17,825 nucleotides of DNA from Candidatus Pacearchaeota archaeon (GTDB lineage Archaea > Nanobdellota > Nanobdellia > Pacearchaeales > GW2011-AR1), in NCBI GenBank assembly GCA_016186375.1, contig JACPLS010000027.1:1-17825 (forward strand), in the 5' to 3' direction. Shown piece after piece: positions 1,534-17,825 of this stretch (the first letter of the stretch is position 1; each line of letters opens with the position of its first letter). The notes under the pieces were generated by a model that ran no database searches, was not told where the DNA came from, and worked only from the letters and a program-made list of their open reading frames with translations. Position numbers and translations under genes: made by a program.

Positions 1534-1540
1534 AATTTCA

Positions 1541-2196: not shown

Positions 2197-2216
2197 GTAA
2201 TAATTGTATTACTTGT

Positions 2217-2229
2217 ATATATTTAAATG
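2217..2229 (-). promoter_or_regulatory. TATA-like box for vapBC (minus strand reads catttaaatatat); it may also fire on the + strand
   Basis: It ends exactly 20 nt upstream of the vapB ATG at 2196. The element is close to symmetric. Confidence 0.5.
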
Positions 2230-2246
2230 TTTTGATTAAATAAAGC

Positions 2247-2409: not shown

Positions 2410-2435
2410 AATATCAATCTTAAATAGAGAATTAC

Positions 2436-2450
2436 ATAGATTTTTATATC
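2436..2450 (+). promoter_or_regulatory. TATA-like box (atagatttttatatc) for the DUF2238 gene
   Basis: It ends 20 nt upstream of ATG 2471. The identical 15-mer recurs at 3475-3489. Confidence 0.55.
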
Positions 2451-2470
2451 ATATAATATTATCTCTTACA

Positions 2471-3478: not shown

Positions 3479-3489
3479 ATTTTTATATC
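3475..3489 (+). promoter_or_regulatory. TATA-like box (atagatttttatatc) for secG/sec61-beta
   Basis: It ends 19 nt upstream of ATG 3509 and overlaps the stop codon of the preceding gene. Confidence 0.55.
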
Positions 3490-3508
3490 CTCTTTTTCTT
3501 CAATAAAT

Positions 3509-3691
3509 ATGGCATCAGATAATAAAATAAGTATGCCCGGTGCTTTTGGCGGGCTTATGCGTTATGATGAAGAATATAATAGTAAATTCATCTTTACCCC
3601 TACGCAGATAATTGGCTTTGTAATCGTAATTGTTATCTTTGTCCTCCTCTTAAAGCTTTTCTGGCCTGCCCCAGTTTTAGTGAATGGATAA
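3509..3691 (+). CDS. secG: Preprotein translocase subunit Sec61-beta (archaeal SecG)
   Basis: 60 aa. PGAFGGLMRYDEEYNSKFIFTPTQIIGFVIVIVIFVLLL matches the archaeal Sec-beta pattern (sAGL-x-RY-x-[DE]E ... P ... followed by a single C-terminal TM). Confidence 0.8.
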   Translation: MASDNKISMPGAFGGLMRYDEEYNSKFIFTPTQIIGFVIVIVIFVLLLKLFWPAPVLVNG

Positions 3692-3890
3692 TTTTATACT
3701 GTATAACCAGATCTCTTCCCTCTTTTGTTATATCTAAATACCCAAAATCCTTCATATAACCTATAAATAAAATATAACTACAAAAAGTGCATATCTTTTT
3801 AATTGTTAATAATGATCTTTTTCTTCGAACCAATATATAGACCACAAATAATTATCAGACATTATTTAATAGGTAATATTATTTAATGAA

Positions 3891-4886: not shown

Positions 4887-4906
4887 ATTTCGAAGTCATT
4901 TTTTCA

Positions 4907-4917
4907 ATATATAAACC
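4907..4917 (-). promoter_or_regulatory. TATA-like box (minus strand ggtttatatat) for dys
   Basis: It ends 20 nt upstream of ATG 4886. Confidence 0.5.
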
Positions 4918-5021
4918 TTGTTTAAGAAAAATAATTGTGTAAAAAAGATGATAAGTTATGAGCATATCGCCAAAATAATAATTGGTAAACTTTTATCACT
5001 AATGTTTGCATTACCATAAAG

Positions 5022-5741
5022 TTATTTAGAAAAATTTGGCGAAGTGCCTTCGGCACTTCTTCTTACCCCGACAAACCTCCCATCGCAACGAAGGGCGCCG
5101 CAGTCGCCCCTCAAACTGCCGCTGCCGCTGCTGCCAAAAAACAGCAAACGCCCAACTGAAACGTCATCATATAAGTCATTTTTCTTCCAAATGCCAATTT
5201 TATCTCCATAAACTTCCTCATGTCTCTTCATATAGGCTTCAGCTCTTTCTCTTCCCCCCAAAAATGGAATTGTTTGTGGATGTTCCAACGCTTTATCAAT
5301 TTGAACTACTCCAGAAAAAGAATTTCTGAACTTATCCTCATCAAGAAGCCAAACTAATCTGTCTCCAAAACAATTTACAGATTCATCCAAGTCTACAAGT
5401 CTCTGAAATTCTTTCTGGGGTAAAATACCTGCGCCATCTTTTAGACCATATTTAATAGCAGTCCTTATGTTTTTAGGTTTTGAAAAATAATTAGGTATAT
5501 GAGCAATAACAACTACAGGATTTCCTTGTGATGTCCTCCCTGTAGCTCTTATACTTGGAGAACAATACCAATTTTGCCAAATTAATGCATTTTTTGGAGA
5601 ACTAATTCTAGTATCTACCAAAGCCGGCATAAATAGTGCTTCATGCTCTTTTTGACAATTTTCAAGAGCAGTAGCTAAATTATTATGATAAAATGGCTTC
5701 CCTACAACTCTCCTTGAAACTACAATACTATCTTCATCCAT
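5022..5741 (-). CDS. Hypothetical protein (239 aa) with a Gly/Ser/Arg/Cys-rich, GC-rich C-terminal tail
   Basis: A long ORF with its own TATA-like box 20 nt upstream. I recognise no family. The tail is LLFFGSSGSGSLRGDCGALRCDGRFVGVRRSAEGTSPNFSK. Confidence 0.6.
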   Translation of the reverse strand: MDEDSIVVSRRVVGKPFYHNNLATALENCQKEHEALFMPALVDTRISSPKNALIWQNWYCSPSIRATGRTSQGNPVVVIAHIPNYFSKPKNIRTAIKYGLKDGAGILPQKEFQRLVDLDESVNCFGDRLVWLLDEDKFRNSFSGVVQIDKALEHPQTIPFLGGRERAEAYMKRHEEVYGDKIGIWKKNDLYDDVSVGRLLFFGSSGSGSLRGDCGALRCDGRFVGVRRSAEGTSPNFSK

Positions 5742-5761
5742 AATATTCTAAGAAAAATACA

Positions 5762-5772
5762 GTTTATAAATC
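5762..5772 (-). promoter_or_regulatory. TATA-like box (minus strand gatttataaac) for the 239-aa orphan
   Basis: It ends 20 nt upstream of ATG 5741. Confidence 0.5.
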
Positions 5773-5785
5773 TTTCCATATGTTA

Positions 5786-6889
5786 CTATTTAATAGTTAA
5801 GAAGTTTTTTTTCTTCCCATGTAAATCCTTCTTCGCAGTTCCCCCAAATCTTCTAACCCTGTCAGAAAAATTTCTGACTGCCTTCTTTAATTCATCTGCA
5901 CCAAATTCAGGGAAATAAACATCGGTAAAATAAAGCTCTGCATAAGTTGCCTGAAAAGGCATTGCGCCGCTTGTTCTTTTTTCTCCAGAAGTCCTTATAA
6001 TCAAATCTGGGTCAGGAATATCTTTTGTATCTAAATAACCCAAAAACACCGCTTCATCTATCTTTCTTTTTTTATCTTTGAGTATTTTGTTTACCGCCCT
6101 TATTACCTCATCTCTCCCACCATAATCGAGCATTAATTGCACATTTAAATCCTCATAATCTTTAGTTTCACTCTCAAGTTTCCTTAATTCATTCATCAAA
6201 TCCTTGGGCAATCTGTCTTTTCTCCCCAAATGCCTAAATCTTATTCTGTGTTTATGAGCCTCCTCTTTTAATTTATCTATCTTTTTCAATATAAGACTAA
6301 AAATTGCCCTTATTTCCTTCTCATCTCTTTTCCAATTCTCTGTTGAAAATCCCCAAATTGATAAATATTTTATTCCTAATCTTTTCGCCTCTACAAATAA
6401 CTCCACTATTCTTTCATCACTTGCAGAAGTATAGTGCCCAAAACTTGCACTCAGTCCTCTCTCTCTAGCCCATCTTCTGTTTCCGTCCGGAATAATTAAA
6501 ACATGTTCAGGAATATTCTTTTTCTCATTTATCACCAAAGCTTTCCCTAAATTGACAAGGCTCTTTGCCTTGTCAATCATATAATTATCCTCCCTAATTA
6601 TGTCAAAGGCCGAATATCTTGCTAATGGTTTTTTCCAAAAATAATTAATATCCTCAATCTTCGAAAATCCAGGGCTATTTTTTATCCATGAAATAAATTC
6701 ATTCAATTTTTCGCCAGACCCTTGTGCAACAATAAGAACAGAGCCTTCTTTCCTGTTCATTACATAACCTCTCAATCCAAGAGAATCAGCTTGTTTTTTT
6801 ATCATGTATCTTAAATTAACTCCCTGAACCCTTCCAAATAACTCAATCTCAACTTCCTTCATTTCTTTTCTTTTATTTTCATCTTTCAT
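5786..6889 (-). CDS. uppS: Acylphosphatase-domain / undecaprenyl-diphosphate synthase (cis-prenyltransferase) fusion protein
   Basis: The N-terminal ~90 aa (FGRVQGVNLRYMIKKQADSLGLRGYVMNRKEGSVLIVAQG) fits the acylphosphatase motifs V-x-G-x-VQGV-x-[FL]R and G-[WY]V-x-N. The rest carries the UPPS blocks HVLIIPDGNRRWA, GFSTENWKR, DYGGRDE, IRTSGEKRTS and RRFGG. Its ATG overlaps the upstream stop as ATGA. Confidence 0.85.
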   Translation of the reverse strand: MKDENKRKEMKEVEIELFGRVQGVNLRYMIKKQADSLGLRGYVMNRKEGSVLIVAQGSGEKLNEFISWIKNSPGFSKIEDINYFWKKPLARYSAFDIIREDNYMIDKAKSLVNLGKALVINEKKNIPEHVLIIPDGNRRWARERGLSASFGHYTSASDERIVELFVEAKRLGIKYLSIWGFSTENWKRDEKEIRAIFSLILKKIDKLKEEAHKHRIRFRHLGRKDRLPKDLMNELRKLESETKDYEDLNVQLMLDYGGRDEVIRAVNKILKDKKRKIDEAVFLGYLDTKDIPDPDLIIRTSGEKRTSGAMPFQATYAELYFTDVYFPEFGADELKKAVRNFSDRVRRFGGTAKKDLHGKKKNFLTIK

Positions 6890-7965
6890 TTTCTTGTTAT
6901 CTCCCCCTCTAAAACTTCTCTAAATTTCTGTAAGTCCTCAGTTTTAATCCTCGCCCCAACAGCATTTTCATGCCCTCCTCCCGTGGCATCCGGAAATTGC
7001 TTTAAAACTCTTTCCAGAATATCCCTAACTTTATTGCCTCTCAAAGAAATATTAGAAATCATACCCTTTTTATAAGCAACCACAATGAAAAAATTAGAAT
7101 AAAGGTAAGATAGTTCATTTGCCAAATCAGCGCTTATACTTAATTCCCCAGAATAATCAAAAAATATTAAATTCTCTTTTTTGCATTCTTTCGCCATATC
7201 TAATAAGGTATTATATTTTTTCTTAATTTCATTGTATTTCTCTCTAAAACTCTTATTTCCTTCAATTTCCATAAAAACATCTGAAGGTGATTTACAACTT
7301 ATCAAGAAATTCTGCATCTGGACAACATGCGTAATAGAATCTTTCAAGCCAAAGCTAAAAGCCCTTGCTATTCTTCCTATTTCAGTTCCATAATAAATAT
7401 CAAATGGGCCTCTTATCTTATCGTTTCTTGTCAGAAAATCAGGCCATTGTTTATCAAATTCAGAAATAAAAGAAGGCATAAAGTTATCAGCTATACATCC
7501 TATTACTGCCAGCCATAAATCCTCTTTCCTCTCTGTTATTTTATAAACTAAAAAAGTAACTGGCTCATTGCTAATGTCCTTTCCCTTATTATAAGTGGGG
7601 TTATAAATATGTAAATTACTATAATTTTTACCAAACCTCTTTTCAATTCCATTATCTTCAGAGTAATGGTGGTCTATCCATATCAAAGGTAACTGCATTT
7701 TATCAATCTCTTCCATGAATTCCTTGGCAATAAGTGGTTTATCTAAAACAAAAACAGCATCTGCCTTCAATTCCTGCGCTTTTTTCGCATATTGCAAATT
7801 TAAGTCGGGATAACTCTTAACAGCAACTCCTTTTCCTCTTCCTATGTATCTCCTTAGAAGCAAATAGCTGCAAAGACCATCAGCATCATTATCATAAAAA
7901 AACAAAGGATTCTGCGCTCTTTCAAGATGTTCCTTTATTTCTTCAATTTGTTTTGGTGTTAACAT
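6886..7965 (-). CDS. DHH/DHHA1-family phosphoesterase (RecJ-like / NrnA-like)
   Basis: Contains FFYDNDADGLCS (DHH motifs I/II), IWIDHH (the DHH motif) and GGGHENAVGA (DHHA1). The ORF track begins at TTG 7971. I use ATG 7965 because the TATA-like box ends 20 nt upstream of it. Confidence 0.8.
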   Translation of the reverse strand: MLTPKQIEEIKEHLERAQNPLFFYDNDADGLCSYLLLRRYIGRGKGVAVKSYPDLNLQYAKKAQELKADAVFVLDKPLIAKEFMEEIDKMQLPLIWIDHHYSEDNGIEKRFGKNYSNLHIYNPTYNKGKDISNEPVTFLVYKITERKEDLWLAVIGCIADNFMPSFISEFDKQWPDFLTRNDKIRGPFDIYYGTEIGRIARAFSFGLKDSITHVVQMQNFLISCKSPSDVFMEIEGNKSFREKYNEIKKKYNTLLDMAKECKKENLIFFDYSGELSISADLANELSYLYSNFFIVVAYKKGMISNISLRGNKVRDILERVLKQFPDATGGGHENAVGARIKTEDLQKFREVLEGEITRK

Positions 7966-7985
7966 ACTCAAGACACATTATGAGC

Positions 7986-7998
7986 CTATTTAAATTTT
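7986..7998 (-). promoter_or_regulatory. TATA-like box (minus strand aaaatttaaatag) for the DHH-uppS operon
   Basis: It ends 20 nt upstream of ATG 7965. Confidence 0.5.
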
Positions 7999-8111
7999 AA
8001 GAAAGAATAATCTGCACATTTTCGTTCTTTAATTACATTAAATCTCATGTGAGTATCAACAAAAACACCAATACAATCAGTAAATATAAAATAAATCTTT
8101 TTTATATTACA

Positions 8112-9662
8112 TTAAGGGCAATTTCTCTTCTTATTATCAGCCCAAGCACACTTCCATTTTTTATCAAATACGTTATCTTCTCCAAAATTATCCTCAGATG
8201 AAGAACAATATAAATCATAATTTGTTTTAATACTGCTCAAGACAATATTGTCTATTATAGTTAAATTACGTATATTGCCTCCAAGTATTAATAAATCTCT
8301 AAAAGGAAAGTTACCATTGGAAATATATAATCCTATAGAATTATTTTTTATGAAATTGTTTTTAATAGTTATAAAAGAAGAATCCTTTCCAGATATCATT
8401 ATTCCCTTATCTGAATTATAAATACTATTATCAAAAATACGACTTTCGTTTGATGACTGAATATATATTCCTGAGAAAATTGAATTTAGAGACGATGTTT
8501 TTAAAATTGGCATATTTAATTTACCAATTATAATATTATTAGATATCAAAGTCCGACTACTTAAAATTAAATTTATCACGCCGTTATCAAGAAAATTATT
8601 AAATGATATAGTATCACGTTCATTACGTAACAAATAAATTGATGAATTATAAAGAGTGTTGCTAACAAAAAAATTACCTTTGCTTTCAAAATATTTATTA
8701 CTCTCATAAAAAGGTTCTATATTTATTGAGGCATTATTAAATTTATTATTACTAATATTATTTAATCCCATCAAACTTATAATATTCAAACCATATCCAT
8801 TATTAAATTTATGATTGAATGTATTATTAATAACATCATTACGATCTGCCTTAAATAAATTAATACTAACGCCATTTCTTGTTATTTTTTTAAATGTGTT
8901 CCCTGAAAGCATAGTAGAAAATGTATTGTTTAAAATAACAATTTGATTAGAAGCGAATTGTGAAACAGGTTCTTGTTCATAAAAAGAAATACCTGTTATA
9001 GTGTGAAACGATCCATAAAATAAATATATTGCATTACTATTGCTTATGATCGATCCTTTAAAAACTTTAGTATTATTTGCGCCATATGACATTATAGCTA
9101 TACCTTTACTATCCTTACTAAATAACTTCTTATCATTTAGATTCAAATTTACATTGCTTGAATTTATAACAATACAAGCAATATTGCCCTCAAATTTATT
9201 TTGGTCAGAAATCCAAAAATTTATATTTTTTTCTAAATAATAGTCTCCTGGAATATTAATGATCTGACATGAACCAATAGGGCTTCCTATTGGCAAAGGA
9301 GGTTTACACTCTCCATTTGAACAATAATAATCAGACAGACAATTAATATATTCAGTTTTATAGGTGGATCCAGAGCAATAATATTCAAAAACAGTTTTAT
9401 TTAGATTATAACAAAGATCTGTATATTGTTTACCAGAAACAGATATTGTTCCTTTTTTGGTTGAATAAATTCCATTATCACTATCAGCACAATAAACTGA
9501 ATTATAAATAGGAGTATTATCAACAACATTTCCAGTAACTCCTTTATTTCCTCCAAAAATACCTTTAATCCAATCACCAAAACTAAAAGCAGAAACAATA
9601 CTCAAACTTAAAATAAAAAATAATCCCACAACAAAAATAATTCCGAAAACCTCTTTTTTCAT
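8112..9662 (-). CDS. Secreted/surface protein: signal peptide, Cys-rich module, right-handed parallel beta-helix (NosD/pectate-lyase-like) repeats
   Basis: MKKEVFGIIFVVGLFFILSLSIVSAFS looks like a signal peptide. It is followed by YCADSDNG...CYNL...EYYCSG...INC...YYCSNGEC. After that come many N-rich repeats of ~22 aa of the type NNxIxxNxxGIxI (for example IYNSDKGIMISGKDSSFITIKNNFIKNNSIGLYIS). ATG 9662 is preferred over ATG 9695, which lies inside the TATA-like box. Confidence 0.75.
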   Translation of the reverse strand: MKKEVFGIIFVVGLFFILSLSIVSAFSFGDWIKGIFGGNKGVTGNVVDNTPIYNSVYCADSDNGIYSTKKGTISVSGKQYTDLCYNLNKTVFEYYCSGSTYKTEYINCLSDYYCSNGECKPPLPIGSPIGSCQIINIPGDYYLEKNINFWISDQNKFEGNIACIVINSSNVNLNLNDKKLFSKDSKGIAIMSYGANNTKVFKGSIISNSNAIYLFYGSFHTITGISFYEQEPVSQFASNQIVILNNTFSTMLSGNTFKKITRNGVSINLFKADRNDVINNTFNHKFNNGYGLNIISLMGLNNISNNKFNNASINIEPFYESNKYFESKGNFFVSNTLYNSSIYLLRNERDTISFNNFLDNGVINLILSSRTLISNNIIIGKLNMPILKTSSLNSIFSGIYIQSSNESRIFDNSIYNSDKGIMISGKDSSFITIKNNFIKNNSIGLYISNGNFPFRDLLILGGNIRNLTIIDNIVLSSIKTNYDLYCSSSEDNFGEDNVFDKKWKCAWADNKKRNCP

Positions 9663-9682
9663 AATAGGAGAATGAGAGAATA

Positions 9683-9692
9683 TATATTTAAA
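9683..9692 (-). promoter_or_regulatory. TATA-like box (minus strand tttaaatata) for the beta-helix protein gene
   Basis: It ends 20 nt upstream of ATG 9662. Confidence 0.45.
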
Positions 9693-9707
9693 CATTTCGA
9701 AATTGTC

Positions 9708-10265
9708 TCATATCATCTTAATGCCATGTTGCAAGATTTCTTTAACCAAAGGATCCCTTTTATGTTTATAGAAATCTTTTGTAAAATAATGAATTTCTAT
9801 CTTTTTCTTATATTTTTTCTCTATCTTTCTAATTACTTTTTCAACTTCTCTTTTATTTATTTGTTTGGAAACTATCGCAATATCTATATCGGAACTTGTG
9901 GTAAAAATTAACTTAGCATAACTGCCAAACAAATAAACATCTCTTATTTCTCTTACAGCTAAAAAAGCATCTTTAATATTTAAGATAAGAAAATATTCCT
10001 TCAGTTGAAGTTGCTTAAATGTGGAATATTTCTCATATAAAAACTTTAAGATTTCATTAATTTCTCTATTTTTGTGATTAATTGAAAATATATTTTTTTC
10101 TTTTATTAAAACATTGAGATTAATTAGTGTATAAAGGATTTTATCTAAAACAATATTAGGTATATTTGTCTTTTCTTTAATATTCTTTCTATTAAGTCTT
10201 GAACCAGGAGAAATAGAAAAAATAGTCAAGACTTTTACTATATTAGAATTAAATATATCTATCAT
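9708..10265 (-). CDS. Winged-helix (N-terminal) plus minimal nucleotidyltransferase (MNT-type, C-terminal) protein
   Basis: VYLFGSYAKLIFTTSSDIDIAIVS matches the pol-beta-superfamily motif G-S-x(9-12)-D-x-D. The N-terminal ~70 aa (NRKNIKEKTNIPNIVLDKILYTLINLNVLIKEKN) looks like a wHTH. A GAGGAGGT Shine-Dalgarno-like element lies 9 nt upstream of the ATG. Confidence 0.75.
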   Translation of the reverse strand: MIDIFNSNIVKVLTIFSISPGSRLNRKNIKEKTNIPNIVLDKILYTLINLNVLIKEKNIFSINHKNREINEILKFLYEKYSTFKQLQLKEYFLILNIKDAFLAVREIRDVYLFGSYAKLIFTTSSDIDIAIVSKQINKREVEKVIRKIEKKYKKKIEIHYFTKDFYKHKRDPLVKEILQHGIKMI

Positions 10266-10354
10266 TTAGAATGTACCTCCTCAAAAAGTCCCTTAATTTT
10301 CTCTAAATAAGTCAAAACAACTTTCTCCTTTAATAGAGTATCTATCTTTACCAT
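10262..10354 (-). CDS. Candidate 30-aa leader ORF (MVKIDTLLKEKVVLTYLEKIKGLFEEVHSK) coupled to the nucleotidyltransferase gene
   Basis: Its ATG lies 23 nt downstream of the TATA-like box at 10378-10386. Its TGA overlaps the downstream ATG (AAATGA). It is below the ORF-track size cutoff and I recognise no family. Confidence 0.25.
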   Translation of the reverse strand: MVKIDTLLKEKVVLTYLEKIKGLFEEVHSK

Positions 10355-10367
10355 TTTATGGTATTAT
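10346..10367. repeat. 22-nt direct repeat, copy A (ctttaccattttatggtattat), with an internal ACCAT-N3-ATGGT dyad
   Basis: It is identical to 10387-10408. It lies on the gene-proximal side of the TATA-like box and covers the predicted transcription start and the small-ORF ATG. Confidence 0.9.
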
Positions 10368-10377
10368 ATGTATAACT

Positions 10378-10386
10378 CTTTATAAA
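10378..10386 (-). promoter_or_regulatory. TATA-like box (minus strand tttataaag) between the twin 22-nt repeats
   Basis: This is the only TATA-like element upstream of the wHTH-NTase gene. It lies 23 nt from the small-ORF ATG at 10354. Confidence 0.45.
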
Positions 10387-10408
10387 CTTTACCATTTTAT
10401 GGTATTAT
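10387..10408. repeat. 22-nt direct repeat, copy B (ctttaccattttatggtattat)
   Basis: It is identical to 10346-10367, with a 41-nt start-to-start spacing. It abuts the distal (BRE) side of the TATA-like box and starts 9 nt past the stop of the 884-aa gene. Confidence 0.9.
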
Positions 10409-10416
10409 TTAGTACA

Positions 10417-13071
10417 TCAGTATATTACAACCCTGTCAGTATAATCATCATAAGGCATTTCAACACTCTTAATCTCTTCAACACTCTGCAAATTATTAGC
10501 CTTAACCTTTCCACTTGAAACAGTATATAAAACATCATCCATATAAAGAGATCTCTTGATGGAAAATCTATCATCATACCAATTTCTCTGATAGGAAAAA
10601 CCTCCTGGAAGGCTATCAATCATATAATTTCCCCACCCGGTATTTTCATAACCACTTGCATTTGTCTTCCAGACATCTTCCCCCTGTTTAACCCAGACAT
10701 TTCCTTGCCAGTCTTTTCTCTCAGCTCCAATTGGTTCATCTTTAGCAGGCCCATTTTTCTTCTCGCTATCATTAAAATGACTAATCTTTCCACGCAAACT
10801 AATTTCATCATTATCAATATTCAAAACATATGCTCCTTGCCAAATTACATCCCCATATCTCGCATCTTCAGGAGTTTCTTTCCATCCCTGTTGATTGTAT
10901 TTATTCTGGTTAATTTCAGCCAACAAAATTGGCAATACCAACAATTTCCTTTCTTTATCAAATAAGAATGCTTTGTGGTCTTGTAAAGCATAGCTATCAG
11001 TTCCTCTGTCTCCAATATCAAATTTTGCAGCTTCCTGAGGATTTTCAACATCACTTACATCAAATAATGAGATTTTTATCCCTTGATACCATGCAAAGTT
11101 TTCTCCTCCTCCGCGGGCATTTTTTCCAATTCCAATAATATAATTTTCATCATAAGGATGCAAATAATCAGAATATCCAGGAATCTTCAAATATCCTAAA
11201 ACTCTCGGATTACCGCCATCACTTAAATCAACAACGTAAAATGGATCAATTTTCTTGAATGTAACAATATATGCCCTATTCCCCATAAATCTTACAGAAT
11301 AAATCTTTTCTCCTGGAGCAAGGTCTTCAACACTTCCAACATTTTTCATATTTTTATCTAAAACAAATAAGTGATTTAAACTGTTTCCGCTCCAAACTTC
11401 TCCAGTAGTAGTCGCAATTCTGAAATTCCCATCAAATTCATCCATTGAAAACTGGTTTAATACATGCCCAAATACTTCTCCAACTCCCTCGTAAGTTATT
11501 CTCTCCTTATCAATATTAATCTTATGAATTACAGTTTTCTCACTCTCTTTCCCTATTCTTAATTTGAACGCTTCCAACTCCTTCTGAAGCCTTTGGTCAA
11601 AAGCATTCTTATCCTCGCCACTTAAGGAATCTGAATAATCTTTGGTAATTTTCATCGCCAAATTAAATTTACCATAGTCGGATTCACTTGATTTCATAAT
11701 CTCAACAACTTTCTCCTTTTCTTCTAATGGTAAAAGAGGCAATATAACATCTTCCACAATTCTTTTGTTATAATCATTATATGAAGCTCTTTTTAATGAT
11801 GTCAGATAAACATTATTCTGAGAAACATATATCGTTCCAGTTGCTCCTGTTAAATATACTTTATTAGAAACATCTCCGCTTTCAATATCCATTGCAACGA
11901 CATTAGTAAATACAAATTGCCCATCATTAATATCATTATAGTAAACATCGCCAATAGGCACTGTTTTTTCCACCCCGTTTATTTCTAAAACAGGATAAAT
12001 ATCTCTTCCTCCATAAATATATTGTGATGAAATAGCATATACATAATCTCCAATCATTCTAGAATCAATATAATTGCCCTTTATCGATATATTTTTCTCA
12101 AGTTCTGGTCCGCTTCTATCAGATATATCATAAACATATATAATTGTTTTTTCCTCAGAGTATCCCCCACATTCTCTTCCAATACATGGGGCAACCATCC
12201 CGCTGCTCGCAACTTTATCTTTAGTTTCTGCATATTCAGGAAGATAGGACATATATTTATAAGTATTTCCAAATACTATCAATTTATCACCATTGACAAA
12301 AATATCTCTAATATTTATACTATCATTAAAGTCAATTTCCCCGACAAGGTTCATCCTTTCAGCAGGATAAGCATCAATTATTAGTAATTTCTTTCCATTC
12401 AATAAATAAATATACTTTCCATCATTTTTTACAAAATCCGGTTCGTCAACTCCTTCAACCTGTATATTTGTCTTTGAATAATCTGCAGTTCCTGTTTCAG
12501 AATCAGAATAAACTGAAGAAGCACTTGCCTTAGCCACTTCTGTTCCAACTCCACCAGCAAAAGTTTCAGCTGTTCCATAATATCCTCCAATATTTCTAGC
12601 AGCCTCTTCTCTTTCATTTACAAATTTTTCTAGTTCCTTGTAAGAATTAAACTGTTTCATATTACTATCACTGTTCAAATTCTCAATTCTTTCTTGTGAA
12701 CCCAGCAAAGCAATTATTAATATTGCTCCCAAAACAGCAACAAACAAAGCCAATGGAGCAGCAGAAACAAGTCTTCGTGGACTGATTATAATCTTCTTAT
12801 TTGACAATTTATAAGTAGGAATTTTTTTTCCTTTTACACTCCAAAAGAAATTCTTACATTTTTCTATCAAGCCAGCATCAAGTAATTTCTTAATATTATA
12901 ACCAACTGTATTAAGAGGAATGTTCAATAATGAAGAAATATCACTTTCACTCATCTCCTTTTCAGCTATTAAATCCAAAATCTTTTTGCAAGTTTTATTA
13001 GTCATAACTTCAGCAATTGCTGCAGATCTCGGGTCATTCAAATCAACATTCAGATATTTTTCTTCTCTCAT
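10417..13071 (-). CDS. ArsR-like HTH / single TM helix / large extracytoplasmic beta-propeller-domain protein (884 aa)
   Basis: The N-terminus (AAIAEVMTNKTCKKILDLIAEKEMSESDISSLLNIPLNTVGYNIKKLLDAGLIEK) is ArsR/HTH_20-like. A TM helix follows (AAPLALFVAVLGAILIIALLG). Then come motifs I associate with the Pfam Beta_propel family: TNIQVEGVDEPDFVKNDGKYIY and LKIPGYSDYLHPYDENYIIGIG. Confidence 0.8.
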   Translation of the reverse strand: MREEKYLNVDLNDPRSAAIAEVMTNKTCKKILDLIAEKEMSESDISSLLNIPLNTVGYNIKKLLDAGLIEKCKNFFWSVKGKKIPTYKLSNKKIIISPRRLVSAAPLALFVAVLGAILIIALLGSQERIENLNSDSNMKQFNSYKELEKFVNEREEAARNIGGYYGTAETFAGGVGTEVAKASASSVYSDSETGTADYSKTNIQVEGVDEPDFVKNDGKYIYLLNGKKLLIIDAYPAERMNLVGEIDFNDSINIRDIFVNGDKLIVFGNTYKYMSYLPEYAETKDKVASSGMVAPCIGRECGGYSEEKTIIYVYDISDRSGPELEKNISIKGNYIDSRMIGDYVYAISSQYIYGGRDIYPVLEINGVEKTVPIGDVYYNDINDGQFVFTNVVAMDIESGDVSNKVYLTGATGTIYVSQNNVYLTSLKRASYNDYNKRIVEDVILPLLPLEEKEKVVEIMKSSESDYGKFNLAMKITKDYSDSLSGEDKNAFDQRLQKELEAFKLRIGKESEKTVIHKINIDKERITYEGVGEVFGHVLNQFSMDEFDGNFRIATTTGEVWSGNSLNHLFVLDKNMKNVGSVEDLAPGEKIYSVRFMGNRAYIVTFKKIDPFYVVDLSDGGNPRVLGYLKIPGYSDYLHPYDENYIIGIGKNARGGGENFAWYQGIKISLFDVSDVENPQEAAKFDIGDRGTDSYALQDHKAFLFDKERKLLVLPILLAEINQNKYNQQGWKETPEDARYGDVIWQGAYVLNIDNDEISLRGKISHFNDSEKKNGPAKDEPIGAERKDWQGNVWVKQGEDVWKTNASGYENTGWGNYMIDSLPGGFSYQRNWYDDRFSIKRSLYMDDVLYTVSSGKVKANNLQSVEEIKSVEMPYDDYTDRVVIY

Positions 13072-13091
13072 ATTTCACTTAGAATTTAGTT

Positions 13092-13100
13092 CTTTATAAA
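13092..13100 (-). promoter_or_regulatory. TATA-like box (minus strand tttataaag) for the 884-aa gene
   Basis: It ends 20 nt upstream of ATG 13071 and is immediately flanked by the 36-nt palindrome. Confidence 0.5.
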
Positions 13101-13102
13101 CG

Positions 13103-13138
13103 CAGCGAAGACTTCAATTATAATTGAAGTCTTCGCTG
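13103..13138. repeat. Perfect 36-nt palindrome (cagcgaagacttcaatta|taattgaagtcttcgctg)
   Basis: The 18-nt arms are exact reverse complements with no spacer. It sits 2 nt upstream (distal side) of the TATA-like box of the HTH-propeller gene. Confidence 0.9.
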
Positions 13139-13147
13139 TAAACTTGT

Positions 13148-13187
13148 AAAAAAAACTGATTATAAAAACCTCTGAATATCAAAAAAA
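13148..13187 (-). terminator. Oligo-T termination zone for the P-loop gene transcript
   Basis: On the minus strand there are T7 (13181-13187), T5 (13164-13168) and T8 (13148-13155) runs downstream of the GC-rich hairpins. Archaeal RNAP terminates at oligo-T tracts. Confidence 0.4.
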
Positions 13188-13195
13188 CGATGTGC

Positions 13196-13220
13196 CACCG
13201 CAGCTTAAAAGCTGCGGTTT
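13196..13220. repeat. 25-nt GC-rich hairpin repeat, copy 1 (caccgcagcttaaaagctgcggttt)
   Basis: It has a 7-bp stem (CCGCAGC/GCTGCGG) with a ttaaaa loop. It is identical to 13256-13280. Confidence 0.9.
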
Positions 13221-13255
13221 GTGACAGGCACTCGTTTTTTGGATGCTCAAAAAGT

Positions 13256-13280
13256 CACCGCAGCTTAAAAGCTGCGGTTT
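13256..13280. repeat. 25-nt GC-rich hairpin repeat, copy 2; the hairpin loop contains the stop codon of the P-loop gene
   Basis: It is identical to copy 1 and lies 60 nt away. The minus-strand TAA (13265-13267) sits in the loop, and the last codons (..NRSF*) are encoded by the repeat. Confidence 0.9.
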
Positions 13281-13903
13281 TCTAGAGACTTTTTGACATA
13301 AAATCTAACTTCATCAGTTATTTCTTCTAATGATTTTGAATTTACGTTAATTCTAATTACTGGAATTCCTTTTTTCTCCACATTAAACATAGATTCATCA
13401 AATAAATCTTTCAAACGAGATAAGTAAATCAATCCATCATGTAATTGTTTAAATTTATTATTTCTTTGATTTGAAATTTCTGGTGTTATGTCAAAATAAA
13501 TGAAGGAATTTGGATATGAAAATAGATTTTCTAAAAAGAATTTTAAGGGTTTTTTAGCATGCATTTGCAAACCAGAATTTAAATAAAAATCAAAATAGCA
13601 TAAAGTATCTATTATAGGGTCTCGATCTGAAATTAAAACTCTGGATAATTTTTTTACTTTCTGTTCAAAGAAATAAGGAAACAAATAGGTAAAATATGCT
13701 GCCCCGGTAAAATACTTTAAATTATTGATTTCTCCAAATAATACTAATCTATTAACATATCTTGCGAAAAATCTTGACATTCCTGAAACATTATCTCCGT
13801 GATAACTTAAACGAATTGTGTCAATACCTTCTATTTTTTCAAGGGCATTTACAACAGAGCTTTTTCCAGTATTGTCTAATCCAACTATTGATATTTTATA
13901 CAT
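13265..13903 (-). CDS. P-loop NTPase, thymidylate-kinase/deoxynucleoside-kinase-like
   Basis: Walker A motif ISIVGLDNTGKSS. A DR-type motif, LISDRDPIIDTLCYF. A lid-like block, FIYFDITPEISNQRNN. The order and spacing resemble the Tmk/dNK fold. Substrate is unknown. Confidence 0.55.
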   Translation of the reverse strand: MYKISIVGLDNTGKSSVVNALEKIEGIDTIRLSYHGDNVSGMSRFFARYVNRLVLFGEINNLKYFTGAAYFTYLFPYFFEQKVKKLSRVLISDRDPIIDTLCYFDFYLNSGLQMHAKKPLKFFLENLFSYPNSFIYFDITPEISNQRNNKFKQLHDGLIYLSRLKDLFDESMFNVEKKGIPVIRINVNSKSLEEITDEVRFYVKKSLENRSF

Positions 13904-13923
13904 CTTTATAAATTAACAAATCA

Positions 13924-13934
13924 ATATATAAATT
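13924..13934 (-). promoter_or_regulatory. TATA-like box (minus strand aatttatatat) for the P-loop gene
   Basis: It ends 20 nt upstream of ATG 13903. Confidence 0.5.
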
Positions 13935-14012
13935 AAGTTGTATTTAATTTTTATGCAAATCATAAAAATTTCCATATTTTTAACCACTCAAATTGTATAC
14001 TAAATTGAAGAG

Positions 14013-14026
14013 AAATATTTAAATAC
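14013..14026 (+). promoter_or_regulatory. TATA-like box (aaatatttaaatac)
   Basis: It ends 20 nt upstream of ATG 14047. Confidence 0.5.
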
Positions 14027-14046
14027 ATCATTTCAATAAAAAAATT

Positions 14047-14247
14047 ATGAATAAATGGACTGAACTTTTATTAGGCCTGATTTTGGTTGTAGGAGTAATT
14101 ATCTTATCTTTCTATTCACAAAGCTGGGGCACCAAATGGAACTTCCTTAGTGCTGCCTGGACAGTTTTGAAGGGTGGAGTTATCTGGTTCATCTTCGCAA
14201 TAGGAATTCTTTTCATTATTCTTGGTATCTCTGATCTGAAAGGATAA
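14047..14247 (+). CDS. Small membrane protein (66 aa, two predicted TM helices)
   Basis: Two hydrophobic helices: LLLGLILVVGVIILSF and VIWFIFAIGILFIILGI. It has its own TATA-like box at the standard spacing. Confidence 0.55.
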   Translation: MNKWTELLLGLILVVGVIILSFYSQSWGTKWNFLSAAWTVLKGGVIWFIFAIGILFIILGISDLKG

Positions 14248-14259
14248 AAATATTTATAC
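14246..14259 (+). promoter_or_regulatory. TATA-like box (aaaaatatttatac)
   Basis: It ends 20 nt upstream of ATG 14280. Confidence 0.5.
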
Positions 14260-14279
14260 TGCTCTTTCCTTCTTTATTT

Positions 14280-14729
14280 ATGATCCAAATAGACACTACA
14301 ATTCTTGCGGCTAATTATAAATTATTCTATATTCTTTTTGCTCTATTAATTTTTCTTGTAATTCTGTCAATTATAGGTTGGATAATTGTCCAAACAAAAA
14401 AAGACAAACCATCAGATGCACCAATAGCATTTCACAAATCTATCTCTTCTCTTATAATGTTAAGAGGTATTGTCTGGCTTGCTCTTTCTTATATAATAAT
14501 TAAACTCTCAATAGTAATAAATCTAACATTTTTAATGTTATTTGGAATAATTATTGGAGTTCTTCTCGGTTTAGGTGAATTAATTCTCTCTATCGGCCTT
14601 TTCACCAAAAAGCCATGGGCAGAATGGATTTTTCATAAAGTCAAACATTTCATCCTCGCACCTGTGACTGATAAAAAAGCTAATGAATTGCCAACTCAAA
14701 CTCTAATTAATAATCAAAACCCTGGCTAG
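14280..14729 (+). CDS. Membrane protein (149 aa, 3-4 predicted TM helices)
   Basis: Hydrophobic segments LFYILFALLIFLVILSIIGWIIV, GIVWLALSYIIIKLSIVINLTFLMLFGIIIGVLLGLGELILSIGLF. I recognise no family. Confidence 0.55.
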   Translation: MIQIDTTILAANYKLFYILFALLIFLVILSIIGWIIVQTKKDKPSDAPIAFHKSISSLIMLRGIVWLALSYIIIKLSIVINLTFLMLFGIIIGVLLGLGELILSIGLFTKKPWAEWIFHKVKHFILAPVTDKKANELPTQTLINNQNPG

Positions 14730-15337
14730 AACTTTATTTCCAAGCCTACACCAACTCCGAGAGAGTCTTTTTTTTGAAATCCATTATATCTTCCTTCCAC
14801 AACAAAGTAAAAATCTTTCTTAATTCGTTTCCCTAATTGAACTTCGGTCACAACATTATTTGGTCTAAAATTATAATCAAAAAAACCACTTATATACATA
14901 TCACCATTTCTAAAGTTCTTGTTGCCATACAAAACCACCTGTGCTCCATCATTTTCTGTTGCAAATGGATAAAACGTCATACCAAAAAACCCATTTTTCA
15001 TAATTTTAGAAAGATTTGGTTCATATGATATACCTAAACGATGTATTCCATTAGGATAAGAAAAATCTCTATTATATTCTCCTGAAATATTAATTCCTTG
15101 CCAAACTGTCTTTGAAAGTTTATATTCGCCATAAGCATTATCAAATTGTGCATTGTCTTCTTTGCTCATGAAAAAATCTGTAAAACCGAAAAATTTAGTT
15201 CCTAAAGGTAAAGTAGGTGCACTCAAAGTTACTGAAGCTGTTGGCATGCCTCTTGTATCATAATAAGAGCTAACTCCTCCAGCAATTTCAGCTCCTATAG
15301 TCTCTTTGGTCAAAACTCCTAATAAAACAAGTGCCAA
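14726..15337 (-). CDS. Outer-membrane-type beta-barrel-like protein (Tsx / DUF5020-like by eye)
   Basis: Repeated amphipathic alternating segments: ASVTLSA, FFGFTDFF, AYGEYKLSK, GINISGEY, RLGISYEP, FFGMTFYPF, AQVVLYG, MYISGFFDYNF, VVTEVQLG, FYFVVEGRY. The C-terminus DSLGVGVGLEIKF ends in Phe. The only start candidate is TTG 15337. Confidence 0.5.
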   Translation of the reverse strand: MALVLLGVLTKETIGAEIAGGVSSYYDTRGMPTASVTLSAPTLPLGTKFFGFTDFFMSKEDNAQFDNAYGEYKLSKTVWQGINISGEYNRDFSYPNGIHRLGISYEPNLSKIMKNGFFGMTFYPFATENDGAQVVLYGNKNFRNGDMYISGFFDYNFRPNNVVTEVQLGKRIKKDFYFVVEGRYNGFQKKDSLGVGVGLEIKF

Positions 15338-15357
15338 AATACCTTTCTTTGTTGTTT

Positions 15358-15687
15358 TTAATTTCGTTTTTTATATATATCCGTCCTTATTTTATAAAAA
15401 TCAGAATCATATTTAGGAAAACTATAATCTCCTTCTCTAATTATTTTTTCACCATAAATTTTACTTTCTAATACAATATAATCCAAATGATGATCATTTG
15501 CTAAATCATGAAATTCCGCTTTTTTAAAATAAATATAGGGCGTTACAATGTAAACTGTCTCATTAGAATTAAATCTTTTTTCTACAACGAGTTCTCGCCT
15601 TCTACACCCTGAAAAAGTTAAAATTCCAGCAAGTGCTAAAAGAAATAATCGTTCTTTTATTTTAGTTTTTTCTCCTTTCTTTATCAT
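15358..15687 (-). CDS. Putative lipoprotein (109 aa)
   Basis: MIKKGEKTKIKERLFLLALAGILTFSGC has a Lys-rich n-region, a hydrophobic core and a lipobox-like FSGC. It lies 20 nt upstream of the barrel-like gene on the same strand. Confidence 0.5.
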   Translation of the reverse strand: MIKKGEKTKIKERLFLLALAGILTFSGCRRRELVVEKRFNSNETVYIVTPYIYFKKAEFHDLANDHHLDYIVLESKIYGEKIIREGDYSFPKYDSDFYKIRTDIYKKRN

Positions 15688-15707
15688 TCTTCCTCATAAG
15701 TTATTAC

Positions 15708-15716
15708 TATATAATT
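15708..15716 (-). promoter_or_regulatory. TATA-like box (minus strand aattatata) for the lipoprotein/barrel pair
   Basis: It ends 20 nt upstream of ATG 15687. Confidence 0.45.
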
Positions 15717-15745
15717 ACTATAAATAAGATATATTTAAATATTAA

Positions 15746-15763
15746 CTCTCTATTTTTAGAGAG
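15746..15763. promoter_or_regulatory. Inverted repeat CTCTCTA-N4-TAGAGAG in the divergent promoter region (candidate operator)
   Basis: Perfect 7-bp arms. It lies 7 nt upstream of the trmB-like TATA box and about 30 nt from the lipoprotein-gene TATA box. Confidence 0.4.
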
Positions 15764-15770
15764 CTATAGA

Positions 15771-15783
15771 AAAATATAAAAAG
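15771..15783 (+). promoter_or_regulatory. TATA-like box (aaaatataaaaag) for the TrmB-family gene
   Basis: It ends 20 nt upstream of ATG 15804. Confidence 0.5.
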
Positions 15784-15803
15784 ATATAATTCAATAAAAA
15801 AGT

Positions 15804-16517
15804 ATGGATTTTTCAGTTTTAGAAGAACTTGGTTTGAGTAAAGGAGAAATAAAAGTATATCTTGCACTTTTAGAGCAAGGCGTAAGCAAGGTTGGAACAA
15901 TAATTGAAAAAACAGAAATAGCTAGTTCAGCAGTTCATAACTCTCTTCACACTCTATTAAATAAAGGTTTAATCTCTTATATTAAAAAGGGGAAGATTCG
16001 ATATTATCAAGCGTCTCCTCCAAAATATTTAGAAAATTTCTTCAAACAAAAGTTAGAAAGACTAAAAGAAATTCTCCCTATAATTGAAGAAAAACAAAAG
16101 ATAAGAGAAAAACAAGAAGCAGAAGTTTTTGAAGGAATTAAAGGTGTAACTACAATGCTTAACCTTCTCATAGAAGATACTAAAAAAGGAGAAGAATATC
16201 TCTTTTTTGCAACATATATAATTGGTAAAAATAAAGAAATACAAGAATTCTTTGAAAAATACGATTTTAGGCGAAAAGAAAAAGGTCTATATGTAAGGGG
16301 GCTTGCCTTGCCTGAATTAAAACCTCTATTCTTAAATCGAAATAAAATTCTACATATAAAATATCCAAAATTTCCAATTCCAAAAGATGTCAGCATAGTT
16401 AAAGATACAATCTGCCTTATTTCGTGGGGAGAAAGACCAATCGGATTCTTAATACGCTCAAAGCAAATTGCAGAGATGTATAGAAGTTTATTCAATGAAG
16501 TATGGAACAAAACATAA
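15804..16517 (+). CDS. trmB: TrmB-family transcriptional regulator
   Basis: The N-terminus LEELGLSKGEIKVYLALLEQGVSKVGTIIEKTEIASSAVHNSLHTLLNKGLISYIKKGKIRYYQA is the characteristic TrmB wHTH. A ~140-aa C-terminal effector-type domain follows. Confidence 0.85.
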   Translation: MDFSVLEELGLSKGEIKVYLALLEQGVSKVGTIIEKTEIASSAVHNSLHTLLNKGLISYIKKGKIRYYQASPPKYLENFFKQKLERLKEILPIIEEKQKIREKQEAEVFEGIKGVTTMLNLLIEDTKKGEEYLFFATYIIGKNKEIQEFFEKYDFRRKEKGLYVRGLALPELKPLFLNRNKILHIKYPKFPIPKDVSIVKDTICLISWGERPIGFLIRSKQIAEMYRSLFNEVWNKT

Positions 16518-16528
16518 TCACCACAATT

Positions 16529-16540
16529 AATTTATATTTC
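16529..16540 (+). promoter_or_regulatory. TATA-like box (aatttatatttc) for nreA
   Basis: The tttatat core ends 20 nt upstream of ATG 16558. Confidence 0.5.
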
Positions 16541-16557
16541 ATCTAATTAACATTTTA

Positions 16558-17718
16558 ATGCCCTTCTGCAAGATCTGCAACATCTGGAATTGCGACAAAC
16601 ACATGTTTTTCATAGGGAAAACCAGATTAATTAAGAAATTCTCCGGTTCAAGCCCGCCAGAAATTTTCGTGGGAAAGTGGAATTATCCGAATGTTTATAC
16701 AGGAATCCTATCACCAGAAGAACATGGAGACACTTCTCTCCTCTCATCACCAGAAGCATGGCATTCAAATAAACTATCAATCCCACAAATCTTGGAAAAT
16801 AGAAATAAGCTTATCTACGGAAGAACTCAGAGCCATATTAAAAAACATCACTCAAATTTTCTTTCAGTTATGCAAGAAGTAGCCATGACTCAAAAATCAA
16901 TATCTCTGGATTTCCAGTTAAAAAAACCAATAACAAAACAAGAAGAACAAGCTTCTAATGCTCCATTAATATCAAAAGCTGCAGAAGTTTCTTCGGTTCG
17001 CCTCCAGGAAAACCCCTCTGTAAAGCCAAAAATAGATTATTTAGTCAATGATAATGATGCAAAATCCTCAATTGCAATGTTAGAACTCGAAAAAGTTGGA
17101 ATTGGAACTTCATCAATTATCAAGCTCTTATCAGCAGGGCTCCTTGGTCTCAAACATCAGAGGAAATTAGTTCCCACAAGGTGGGCAATCACAGCAACAG
17201 ATGACCTTCTCTCAAAAGAAAAATTGAAATCAATTCGTCAATTTTCAGAATTATCAGAGATTCAAGTCTTCTCCGCTTATTACTTAGGAAACCATTATGA
17301 ATTTCTATTGTTGCCAGAAAAATGGAGTTTTGAAGTTATTGAAATTTCTCTTAAAAACCTTGGCGTCTGGCAAGATTATGAATCCTTCTTCCCAAGAAAA
17401 ATTTATGCAGATAGTGTTACAGGAGCTTATTACGTAAACCGTCTTGCAGTTAGCGAATATCTAGAAAAAATAAAGCGTCAGGCTTCCTGTATAGTTTTCA
17501 GAGAAGTTAGGCAAGAATACTCTTCTCCTCTTGGTGTCGGCATTTTAAGGCAAACATCTAGAGAAGCTTTTTCACAACAACCAAAAAAGTTCAACACTCT
17601 TAATAAAGCCCTAGAAGATATTCAACAAAGATTAAAATTAAAAATTGATAATTTTACATCAAAATCTATATTGCTAAGAAATCATGGAATACAAAAAAAG
17701 CTCGAGAGCTTTTTTTAA
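16558..17718 (+). CDS. nreA: Nre-family archaeal DNA repair protein (NreA-like) with a C-terminal PCNA-interacting PIP box
   Basis: An N-terminal Cys/His cluster (CKICNIWNCDKH), then GSSPPEIFVGKWNYPNVYTGILSP and VPTRWAITATDD blocks typical of Nre (DUF650/651) proteins. The extreme C-terminus QKKLESFF fits Q-x-x-[LIM]-x-x-[FY][FY]. Confidence 0.8.
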   Translation: MPFCKICNIWNCDKHMFFIGKTRLIKKFSGSSPPEIFVGKWNYPNVYTGILSPEEHGDTSLLSSPEAWHSNKLSIPQILENRNKLIYGRTQSHIKKHHSNFLSVMQEVAMTQKSISLDFQLKKPITKQEEQASNAPLISKAAEVSSVRLQENPSVKPKIDYLVNDNDAKSSIAMLELEKVGIGTSSIIKLLSAGLLGLKHQRKLVPTRWAITATDDLLSKEKLKSIRQFSELSEIQVFSAYYLGNHYEFLLLPEKWSFEVIEISLKNLGVWQDYESFFPRKIYADSVTGAYYVNRLAVSEYLEKIKRQASCIVFREVRQEYSSPLGVGILRQTSREAFSQQPKKFNTLNKALEDIQQRLKLKIDNFTSKSILLRNHGIQKKLESFF

Positions 17719-17825
17719 TTAAATTTCACCACATTTCTAATCTTTTCGCCATACTGTTCTCTGCCTGTGTGATATACTACATTCCCACAAATATACTTAT
17801 CAATTGCTCTTCTTTCAAATGGCAT
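17715..17825 (-). CDS. Partial or short ORF at the window edge (..MPFERRAIDKYICGNVVYHTGREQYGEKIRNVVKFN*)
   Basis: The frame is open from the last base of the window to TAA at 17715-17717. An ATG falls at 17823-17825, but the ORF may continue beyond the window. I recognise no family. Confidence 0.3.
   Translation of the reverse strand: MPFERRAIDKYICGNVVYHTGREQYGEKIRNVVKFN

Follow-up and report, generated by a model that had tools for sequence, protein, structure and literature searches.

A predicted outer-membrane-type beta-barrel conserved in Pacearchaeota and related DPANN archaea beside a TrmB-family regulator

Introduction

The contig of a Candidatus Pacearchaeota metagenome-assembled genome (MAG) carries, within the 17,825-nucleotide stretch analyzed here (positions 1-17,825, hereafter the window), a 203-amino-acid (aa) open reading frame (ORF) that very probably encodes a native, conserved membrane beta-barrel of the bacterial outer-membrane protein (OMP) type. 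It appears to be a working member of an unnamed family of 12-stranded barrels with mature parts of about 190 residues, one clade of which has become fixed in DPANN archaea (Pacearchaeota, Woesearchaeota, and Nanoarchaeota MAGs), where it is now an ordinary archaeal gene. A TrmB-like regulator encoded next door is likely to control the barrel operon through a palindromic operator. The best explanation as a whole, which we rate slightly better than even, is that of a regulated barrel fixed in DPANN that inserts without the beta-barrel assembly machinery (BAM) and acts as a channel for small solutes.

To our knowledge, transmembrane beta-barrels are regarded as a defining feature of bacterial outer membranes and of organelles with a bacterial origin, and such barrels are believed to require the Omp85/BAM machine in order to fold. 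Our wider proposition, which we put forward tentatively and at somewhat under even likelihood, is that DPANN archaea of the Woese-, Pace-, and Nanoarchaeota type natively make a bacterial-type barrel that works outside a classical outer membrane, without BAM and under a dedicated TrmB switch. The candidate site would be either the cell's own membrane, composed of isoprenoid or host-scavenged lipids, or a tightly apposed host membrane. If true, this would give Archaea their first native family of transmembrane beta-barrels, and it would point either to an unrecognized outer lipid layer or to a new use of porins at a symbiotic interface. Conserved barrels under purifying selection and archaeal regulation would mean that the DPANN envelope is not as assumed, or that a porin is deployed BAM-free in the membrane of the cell itself or of its host. 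They would also offer a concrete handle on nutrient acquisition by host-dependent cells, consisting of a small protein, a regulator, and an operator, each accessible to in vitro tests that need no cultivation. In the literature covered, from which subscription journals were excluded, OMP-type barrels are not described for Woese- or Pacearchaeota; the closest thing is a remark, made in passing, on a possible distant relative of PopA in the Altiarchaeales, which have two membranes (PMC12228718). What is new here is an archaeal clade of such barrels, which is fixed in lineages not known to have an outer membrane and is tied to an archaeal promoter, an operator, and a TrmB regulator.

A predicted 12-stranded barrel of the outer-membrane type

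The preliminary description of this DNA, made from its sequence alone, had pointed to two ORFs, both of which are present on the minus strand at the positions it gave, and had read the product of the longer one as a series of alternating polar and hydrophobic segments with the aromatic C-terminal ending of an OMP. Structure prediction bears out the alternation. An AlphaFold2 model based on a 16-sequence alignment (mean pLDDT 88, pTM 0.76) consists of an N-terminal helix, which is the signal peptide, and 12 strands, and a Foldseek search of the PDB with this model returned 51 matches at E≤1e-3. The top 50 are all transmembrane beta-barrels at a Foldseek probability of 1.00, comprising bacterial OMPs and a few designed barrels. 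The best target-normalized TM-scores belong to other 12-stranded barrels, namely KdgM (0.67-0.68), NanC (0.59), and OMPLA (about 0.5), with Foldseek E values of 9e-6 to 6e-5 for KdgM and NanC. Closure of the barrel and the size of its pore are taken from these fold matches and the strand count, not from the model coordinates.

Independently of the model, each of the 12 strands in the 16-sequence alignment has a V/L/I/F face opposite a polar or charged one, and in all 12 the Kyte-Doolittle means of the opposing faces are 1 unit or more apart, mostly 1.5 to 4. The invariant charged or polar residues that face the lumen are D38, R40, E82, E98, R111, D165, Q178, E192, R194, and E211, with Q144 nearly invariant. 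All full-length relatives begin with a signal peptide, composed of an n-region and an h-region followed by either AxA or a lipobox Cys; the latter occurs in about one third of them, some 8 residues ahead of strand 1. The window barrel has the h-region and a cleavage-type site between TIGA and E, while its n-region lies upstream of the annotated TTG start codon. The product closes with ...DSLGVGVGLEIKF (also written ...GVGVGLEIKF), so that its last residues are G-L-E-I-K-F, and an aromatic C-terminal residue (F, W, or Y) is found in 22 of the 31 archaeal-clade members and 49 of the 69 others.

The fold is of a known kind, in a family that lacks a Pfam, NCBIfam, or PDB-sequence match and is undescribed in the literature covered. 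The window barrel matches no Pfam or NCBIfam model at E≤1, and a profile built from 88 family members retrieved nothing from all PDB sequences at E≤10. When the 88 relatives were scanned singly, every match to the OMP clans remained below threshold; the commonest were OMP_b-brl (16 relatives, best E 1.1e-4), DUF5020 (6), DUF2490 (5), and Channel_Tsx (4). The model, the Foldseek matches, the strand alternation, and these faint hits together uphold the assignment to OMP-type transmembrane barrels that had been suggested from the sequence.

Among characterized proteins, the closest in structure are KdgM and NanC (PDB 4FQE, 4PR7, and 2WJQ), which share with the archaeal barrel the 12 strands, a length of about 200 residues, short turns, a monomer-sized barrel, and a charged lumen. 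KdgM and NanC are substrate-induced channels under a dedicated transcription regulator. The differences are considerable, however: identity over the structural alignments is only 10-13%, no sequence relationship was detected by the Pfam scan or the PDB profile search, and KdgM and NanC sit in proteobacterial outer membranes where BAM assembles them, whereas the archaeal barrel has even shorter loops and no known outer membrane to occupy. At a broader level, the family resembles the bacterial OMP superfamily (Pfam clan MBB, with OMP_b-brl PF13505 and OMPLA) in its signal peptide, its even number of antiparallel amphipathic strands, its aromatic-rich strand ends, and its C-terminal Gly-x-x-hydrophobic-x-aromatic pattern, and it has true homologues in diderm bacteria. 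Unlike many of these homologues, members of the archaeal clade lack an N-terminal coiled-coil extension, and they differ further in having an archaeal promoter, an operator, and TrmB control in hosts with no known outer membrane or BAM.

Distribution and probable bacterial ancestry

An exhaustive phmmer search of 1.84 billion cluster representatives recovered 159 relatives at E≤1e-3, 49 of them at E≤1e-10. Among species-representative genomes under their GTDB names, close relatives (39-55% identity) come from Nanoarchaeota and Woesearchaeota MAGs and from one record labelled Methanosarcinales, and relatives of about 30% identity come from Gemmatimonadota, Latescibacterota, and one uncultured bacterium. 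Further members of bacterial type were found on a 7.8-Mb sulfatase-rich chromosome and on a 108-kb contig with a TolC-family gene. In three bacterial loci (L010, 7902-9848; L011, 6277-11024; L016, 6001-7393), the homologue adjoins genes for signal transduction, the neighbours comprising sensor histidine kinases, a response regulator, and a periplasmic binding-protein-like gene.

The preliminary description had proposed that homologues be sought in related archaeal genomes, and assemblies from NCBI, ENA, Logan, and JGI yielded 27 archaeal-type loci that are non-redundant at 95% identity. Where flanking genes are visible, they include those for TBP, DNA ligase, NreA, eIF-1A, tRNA-intron endonuclease, and LeuRS. 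The closest relative, L013, is 72% identical and has the gene order of the window, with the barrel gene between a TrmB gene and a gene for a 149-aa membrane protein. Several module-bearing loci have a high GC content (L003 and L008 at 55%, L019, and L039, in the range 51-58%), and one of these is labelled "uncultured Methanosarcinales archaeon"; either the family extends beyond low-GC DPANN lineages or the label is unreliable.

In a neighbour-joining tree of the homologues, which is distance-based, midpoint-rooted, and composed mostly of sequences without a taxonomic label, all sequences from archaeal contexts form one clade and all those from bacterial contexts fall elsewhere. Because homologues of about 30% identity occur in diderm bacteria and the archaeal sequences form a single clade, bacterial ancestry, which had been suspected from the outset, is the most economical reading, and the simplest course of events would be a single old transfer from bacteria to archaea followed by vertical spread. 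A viral vector is without support, since the viral contigs of IMG/VR contained no relatives of the barrel. Among viral proteins, a fold search brought up nothing beyond generic OMP-like barrels encoded by phages.

An archaeal promoter, a conserved operator, and a TrmB-like regulator

The regulatory region (Table 1) contains a TTAATA element and a TATA box (TTTAAATA, positions 15739-15732), followed by a leader whose Shine-Dalgarno sequence GAGGA (15695-15691) precedes the ATG at 15687. The TATA block upstream of the barrel gene is kept in both position and sequence in L001, L006, L007, and L013. A palindrome, CTCTC-N8-GAGAG, abuts this TATA box, which faces the barrel gene, and lies about 42 nt from the TrmB start codon. 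It is the sole match within the window, where 0.02 would be expected by chance. Of the 26 non-redundant loci that are informative (those of the 27 with upstream sequence), 16, the window included, have it at an identical offset. This DNA is conserved even though the barrels are only 31-72% identical to that of the window and the GC content ranges from 28% to 58%. Conservation of the block at the DNA level across such diverged lineages speaks strongly for a functional operator and for native archaeal transcription.

The divergent neighbour on the other side of the palindrome is a regulator of 237 aa whose winged-helix domain matches PF01978 (TrmB) at 51.6 bits against a cut-off of 25.6 (E 8.3e-14). 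Most archaeal loci have a TrmB-family gene next to the barrel gene and divergent from it, and 18 of the 26 informative loci have the barrel gene divergent from a TrmB-family regulator, beside the palindrome, or both. The arrangement recalls the TrmB/TGM paradigm of Thermococcales, in which a TrmB-family regulator acts with a palindromic operator beside the promoter. Both have a TrmB-type winged helix and an inverted repeat beside the TATA box of a gene predicted, in the present case, to serve solute traffic across the envelope. They differ in the operator, here CTCTC-N8-GAGAG, in the target, here a beta-barrel rather than an ABC transporter, and in the regulator, in which the Pfam scan detected no sugar-binding C-terminal domain; the binding itself is, in our case, a prediction.

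The earlier proposal that the gene is native to an archaeal genome is supported by the conserved TATA promoter and operator, with the caveat that the only demonstrably conserved promoter of the window precedes a second ORF of 109 codons and not the barrel ORF directly. The barrel gene of L013 follows the regulated promoter without such an interval, as do those of most other linked loci.

Two further observations concern this module. A GTTACTA/TAGTAAC-like motif occurs between the TATA box and the start codon in the window (15700-15725) and in L003, L005, L006, L007, L009, L017, and L018, including loci without a TrmB link, and could be a second regulatory element or a chance occurrence in AT-rich DNA. 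In L036 (508-1021) and L037 (164-677), only the C-terminal half of a barrel (query residues 103-214) is present, 32 nt from the C-terminal end of a TrmB gene, which looks like a deleted and decayed copy of the module.

Table 1. Positions in the window of the barrel gene, the ORF upstream of it, and their regulatory elements.
Feature	Positions	Strand	Basis and remarks
Barrel gene	14726..15337	-	203 codons from annotated TTG; NCBI HYW75_01860; mature part from about EIAGG
In-frame upstream extension of barrel ORF (KTKLKTTKKGI)	15338..15370	-	Sequence and alignment to signal peptides of relatives
109-aa ORF	15358..15687	-	ATG start; putative signal peptide and lipobox-like FSGC
Core promoter and leader	15688..15745	-	Sequence; block conserved in L001, L006, L007, and L013
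Palindromic operator CTCTCT-AAAAAT-AGAGAG	15746..15763	.	Single match in the window; conserved offset
TrmB-family regulator, 237 aa	15804..16517	+	Pfam TrmB, 51.6 bits; divergent neighbour

Proposed function and its alternatives

In the mechanism we propose, the precursor would be exported by Sec, relatives carrying either a signal-peptidase-I-type or a lipobox signal peptide. The barrel would then fold and insert without BAM into a lipid bilayer at the cell surface, a step that its very short loops should assist, and its charge-lined lumen would form a narrow channel through which small hydrophilic solutes are imported into metabolically poor cells. A TrmB-like regulator at the operator beside the TATA box would switch production on and off. 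The short loops on both sides, together with the lipid-anchored N-terminus about 8 residues from strand 1 in some relatives, would favor insertion from outside into the cell's own membrane, or into a membrane in very close contact. The specific function as a narrow hydrophilic solute channel we propose with some reserve, as a possibility that falls a little short of an even chance.

Several points weigh against a regulated, BAM-free channel of this kind. We know of no outer membrane or BAM in these archaea, and no Omp85 or POTRA gene was found in any of the fetched flanks, which are contigs and not whole genomes. The barrel is known in these organisms from genes, alignments, and predicted structure alone, and binding of TrmB to the palindrome would follow only from the position and conservation of the two. 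Eight of the 26 informative loci have no TrmB or operator link. The paired charges in the lumen are many and could equally plug the barrel. Because the gene in this genome has no ATG and lies behind an inserted ORF, its expression here would depend on a TTG (or ACG or ATT) start or on coupling to the upstream ORF. Finally, the midpoint-rooted and mostly unlabelled tree leaves the direction of transfer unproven.

The possibility of a plugged lumen is the core of an alternative that we consider rather unlikely, in which the barrel is not a channel at all and its interior is closed by a conserved salt-bridge network, leaving it a role in adhesion or contact, in membrane anchoring, or as a barrel enzyme. 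Known barrels of this sort, with 12 strands or fewer, include OMPLA, OmpA, PagP, and OmpX. Conservation extends to about ten acidic and about ten basic positions that face the lumen, many of which never vary, and the conserved polar motifs YYDTR, EYNRD, DYN, and RYNGF lie together at one rim, which would be expected of a binding or active site. OMPLA, an enzyme and not a channel, is among the best fold matches, but the highest TM-scores are those of the true channels KdgM and NanC. Moreover, the catalytic signatures of OMPLA (Ser-His-Asn), PagP, and OmpT are not assignable in the barrel, which has no sequence match to those families, and an adhesin whose binding domain is exposed would need longer loops.

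It is less probable still that the barrel is directed at the host, such that an episymbiont exports it into a closely apposed host membrane to draw metabolites. There is precedent in the neisserial porin, which transfers spontaneously into the membranes of target cells. The DPANN of these groups are reduced and thought to be host-dependent, small size and short loops would suit unassisted insertion, and tight regulation of the repressor type would fit a potentially dangerous protein. The difficulty is that the lipobox Cys so close to strand 1 in about one third of the relatives would tether the barrel to the producing cell unless the two membranes nearly touch. Nor is any host known for these lineages, and the fetched flanks contain no secretion or delivery apparatus. 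In favor of a host-directed pore, a different type of pore-forming-toxin gene, tlyC, has been suggested to serve "vampiristic" Woesearchaeota (PMC9723730).

A different kind of doubt is whether the barrel gene is still functional in this genome. Its frame is open upstream to 15370 and contains no ATG, reading KTKLKTTKKGILALVLLGVLTKETIGA followed by EIAGG; the upstream extension KTKLKTTKKGI supplies the positively charged n-region of the signal peptide. An ACG at 15367-15365 aligns with the ATG start of relatives, and a single T-to-C change would explain the loss. With the ATG restored, the signal peptide would read MKLKTTKKGILALVLLGVLTKETIGA. The annotated TTG (15337) is preceded by an ATT and by an AAGG Shine-Dalgarno-like element, 20 nt past the stop of the 109-aa ORF. 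A young pseudogene, in which an insertion split off the promoter and the ATG decayed to ACG, would account for this start and for the roughly 330 bp of ORFan sequence between conserved promoter and barrel ORF, where L013 has its promoter directly upstream, and the truncated barrels beside truncated TrmB genes in L036 and L037 illustrate that the module can decay.

We nevertheless regard decay as an improbable account of the window. Stop codons come about readily in a genome of 30% GC, yet the 203-codon frame has stayed open; all residues conserved across the family are kept, and the TTG with its AAGG so close behind the upstream stop permits coupled translation. Four other lineages also have ORFs inserted in this place and intact barrels. 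Comparison with L013 gives a dN/dS of 0.147/0.654 = 0.22, and Tajima relative-rate counts (19 vs 18 with L014 as outgroup, 6 vs 17 with L001) show that the window lineage is not accelerated. Because of this low ratio and the lack of acceleration, we consider the barrel gene to be under purifying selection and functional here, as judged from its pattern of substitution.

The preliminary description had likened the protein to Tsx-like or DUF5020-like small porins, and a nucleoside channel of that family would fit a nucleoside-scavenging lifestyle, but membership is very unlikely. Tsx too has 12 strands, and the weak hits in a minority of relatives (4 and 6 of 88) are as noted above, but the best Channel_Tsx (PF03502) score is 20.9 bits over about 45 residues against a gathering cut-off of 27.2, the best DUF5020 (PF16412) score is 18.6 bits against 36.7, and the generic OMP_b-brl was matched more often. 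An hhalign comparison of the 88-sequence family profile with Escherichia coli Tsx gave a probability of 0.8% and aligned only a 26-residue hairpin, and no Tsx structure is among the Foldseek top 50. That hairpin (barrel residues 129-154, at about 14910-14990; Tsx residues 187-212) has the pattern F-Y-P-x-x-T-[ED]-x-x-G-x-Q, also seen as F-P-x-x-T-D-x-x-G-x-Q, and probably explains the sub-threshold Channel_Tsx hits. The resemblance amounts to distant superfamily kinship at most.

A misassembly or misbinning that put bacterial DNA into an archaeal contig is effectively refuted as the origin of the segment. The fold class is otherwise bacterial, as are the closest homologues outside the archaea, but neither GC content (28-31%) nor skew shows a break across 14-16 kb, an archaeal TATA box and conserved operator stand directly upstream, the gene sits between the same two neighbours in the independent assembly L013, and it recurs with archaeal flanking genes, where visible, across the 27 loci from many independent assemblies.

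A variable slot between promoter and barrel gene

The 109-aa ORF that separates the conserved promoter from the barrel gene begins with MIKKGEKTKIKERLFLLALAGILTFSGC... and has a lipobox-like FSGC. Its putative signal, ...LALAGILT-F-S-G-C, fits [L/V/I][A/S/T/V/I][G/A/S]C at positions -2, -1, and +1, with F at -3. It had been described as the lipoprotein half of a bacterial-style lipoprotein-plus-barrel cassette, a view that is supported on neither count. As to partnership, the ORF is an ORFan: its only match among 5.8 billion protein clusters was itself, it has no Pfam or NCBIfam domain, tblastn found no match in any of the fetched archaeal loci, and it is absent from L013, where gene order is otherwise as in the window. 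Its AlphaFold2 model is uninformative (pLDDT 48.6). As to bacterial style, lipobox proteins are reported to be widespread among DPANN archaea, as is AliA, the enzyme that lipidates them (PMC12462473). Archaeal lipobox lipoproteins of the AliA/AliB pathway (PMC12462473) would be a parallel for the apparent n-region, h-region, and [L/F][S/T/A][G/A/S]C of the 109-aa ORF and for those of about one third of the barrel relatives; the ORF departs from them in its F at -3 and in having no homologue whatever, and its lipidation is a prediction.

Four other lineages have 0.3-0.6 kb with unrelated lineage-specific ORFs in the same place downstream of the operator, all small and domain-less (L021, 892-1152; L022, 2366-3005, and its counterpart L023; L029, 470-949; L032, 1004-1258). 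Because unrelated ORFs occupy this place in the other lineages, we regard the 109-aa ORF as a lineage-specific filler of a variable operon slot and not as a conserved partner of the barrel, and the slot itself looks like a hot spot for lineage-specific genes. The ORF is nonetheless probably a real coding sequence, to judge from its 109-codon open frame in 28%-GC DNA, its GAGGA Shine-Dalgarno sequence, and the conserved promoter before it, and it is probably co-transcribed with the barrel gene.

Its first 28 or so codons (15617-15671) resemble the signal-peptide region of the barrel gene (15309-15372, minus strand; KTKIKERLFLLALAGILT vs KTKLKTTKKGILALVLLGVLT), and its lipobox LTFSGC resembles the LTFTGC of the barrel relative P0017. 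When local matches are chained, only 6-19 of 1456 windows from the same contig exceed the DNA similarity of the two regions (empirical p of about 0.004-0.03 overall), whereas in an ungapped local comparison their score does not stand out, being reached by 25 of 818 windows. As a weak lead, the 5' end of the barrel gene may have been partially duplicated into the 109-aa ORF. The idea that the body of the ORF is a diverged barrel copy was rejected (hhalign probability 2% against the barrel family), and a -1 slip on the A6 run at 15372-15367 that would fuse the two ORFs was set aside, as the run is short and the heptamer imperfect.

Other genes of the window

The genes around the barrel are archaeal, as the preliminary description had it: Sec61-beta (3509-3691), deoxyhypusine synthase, NreA (Nre_N/Nre_C), and the TrmB-family regulator were all recovered. 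The gene for the 149-aa membrane protein (14280-14729) is convergent with the barrel gene and overlaps it by 4 nt (14726-14729), the two stop codons sharing the palindrome CTAG; it adjoins the barrel gene in L013 as well. Two minus-strand genes encode large proteins of surface type. One (10417-13071, 884 aa) combines an N-terminal ArsR/HTH_20 domain with Beta_propel and adjoins the barrel neighbourhood in L004 too, and the other (8112-9695, 527 aa) is a NosD/beta-helix protein with a signal peptide. A further minus-strand gene (5786-6889) fuses an N-terminal acylphosphatase domain to a cis-prenyltransferase domain of the undecaprenyl-diphosphate-synthase type, an unusual pairing.

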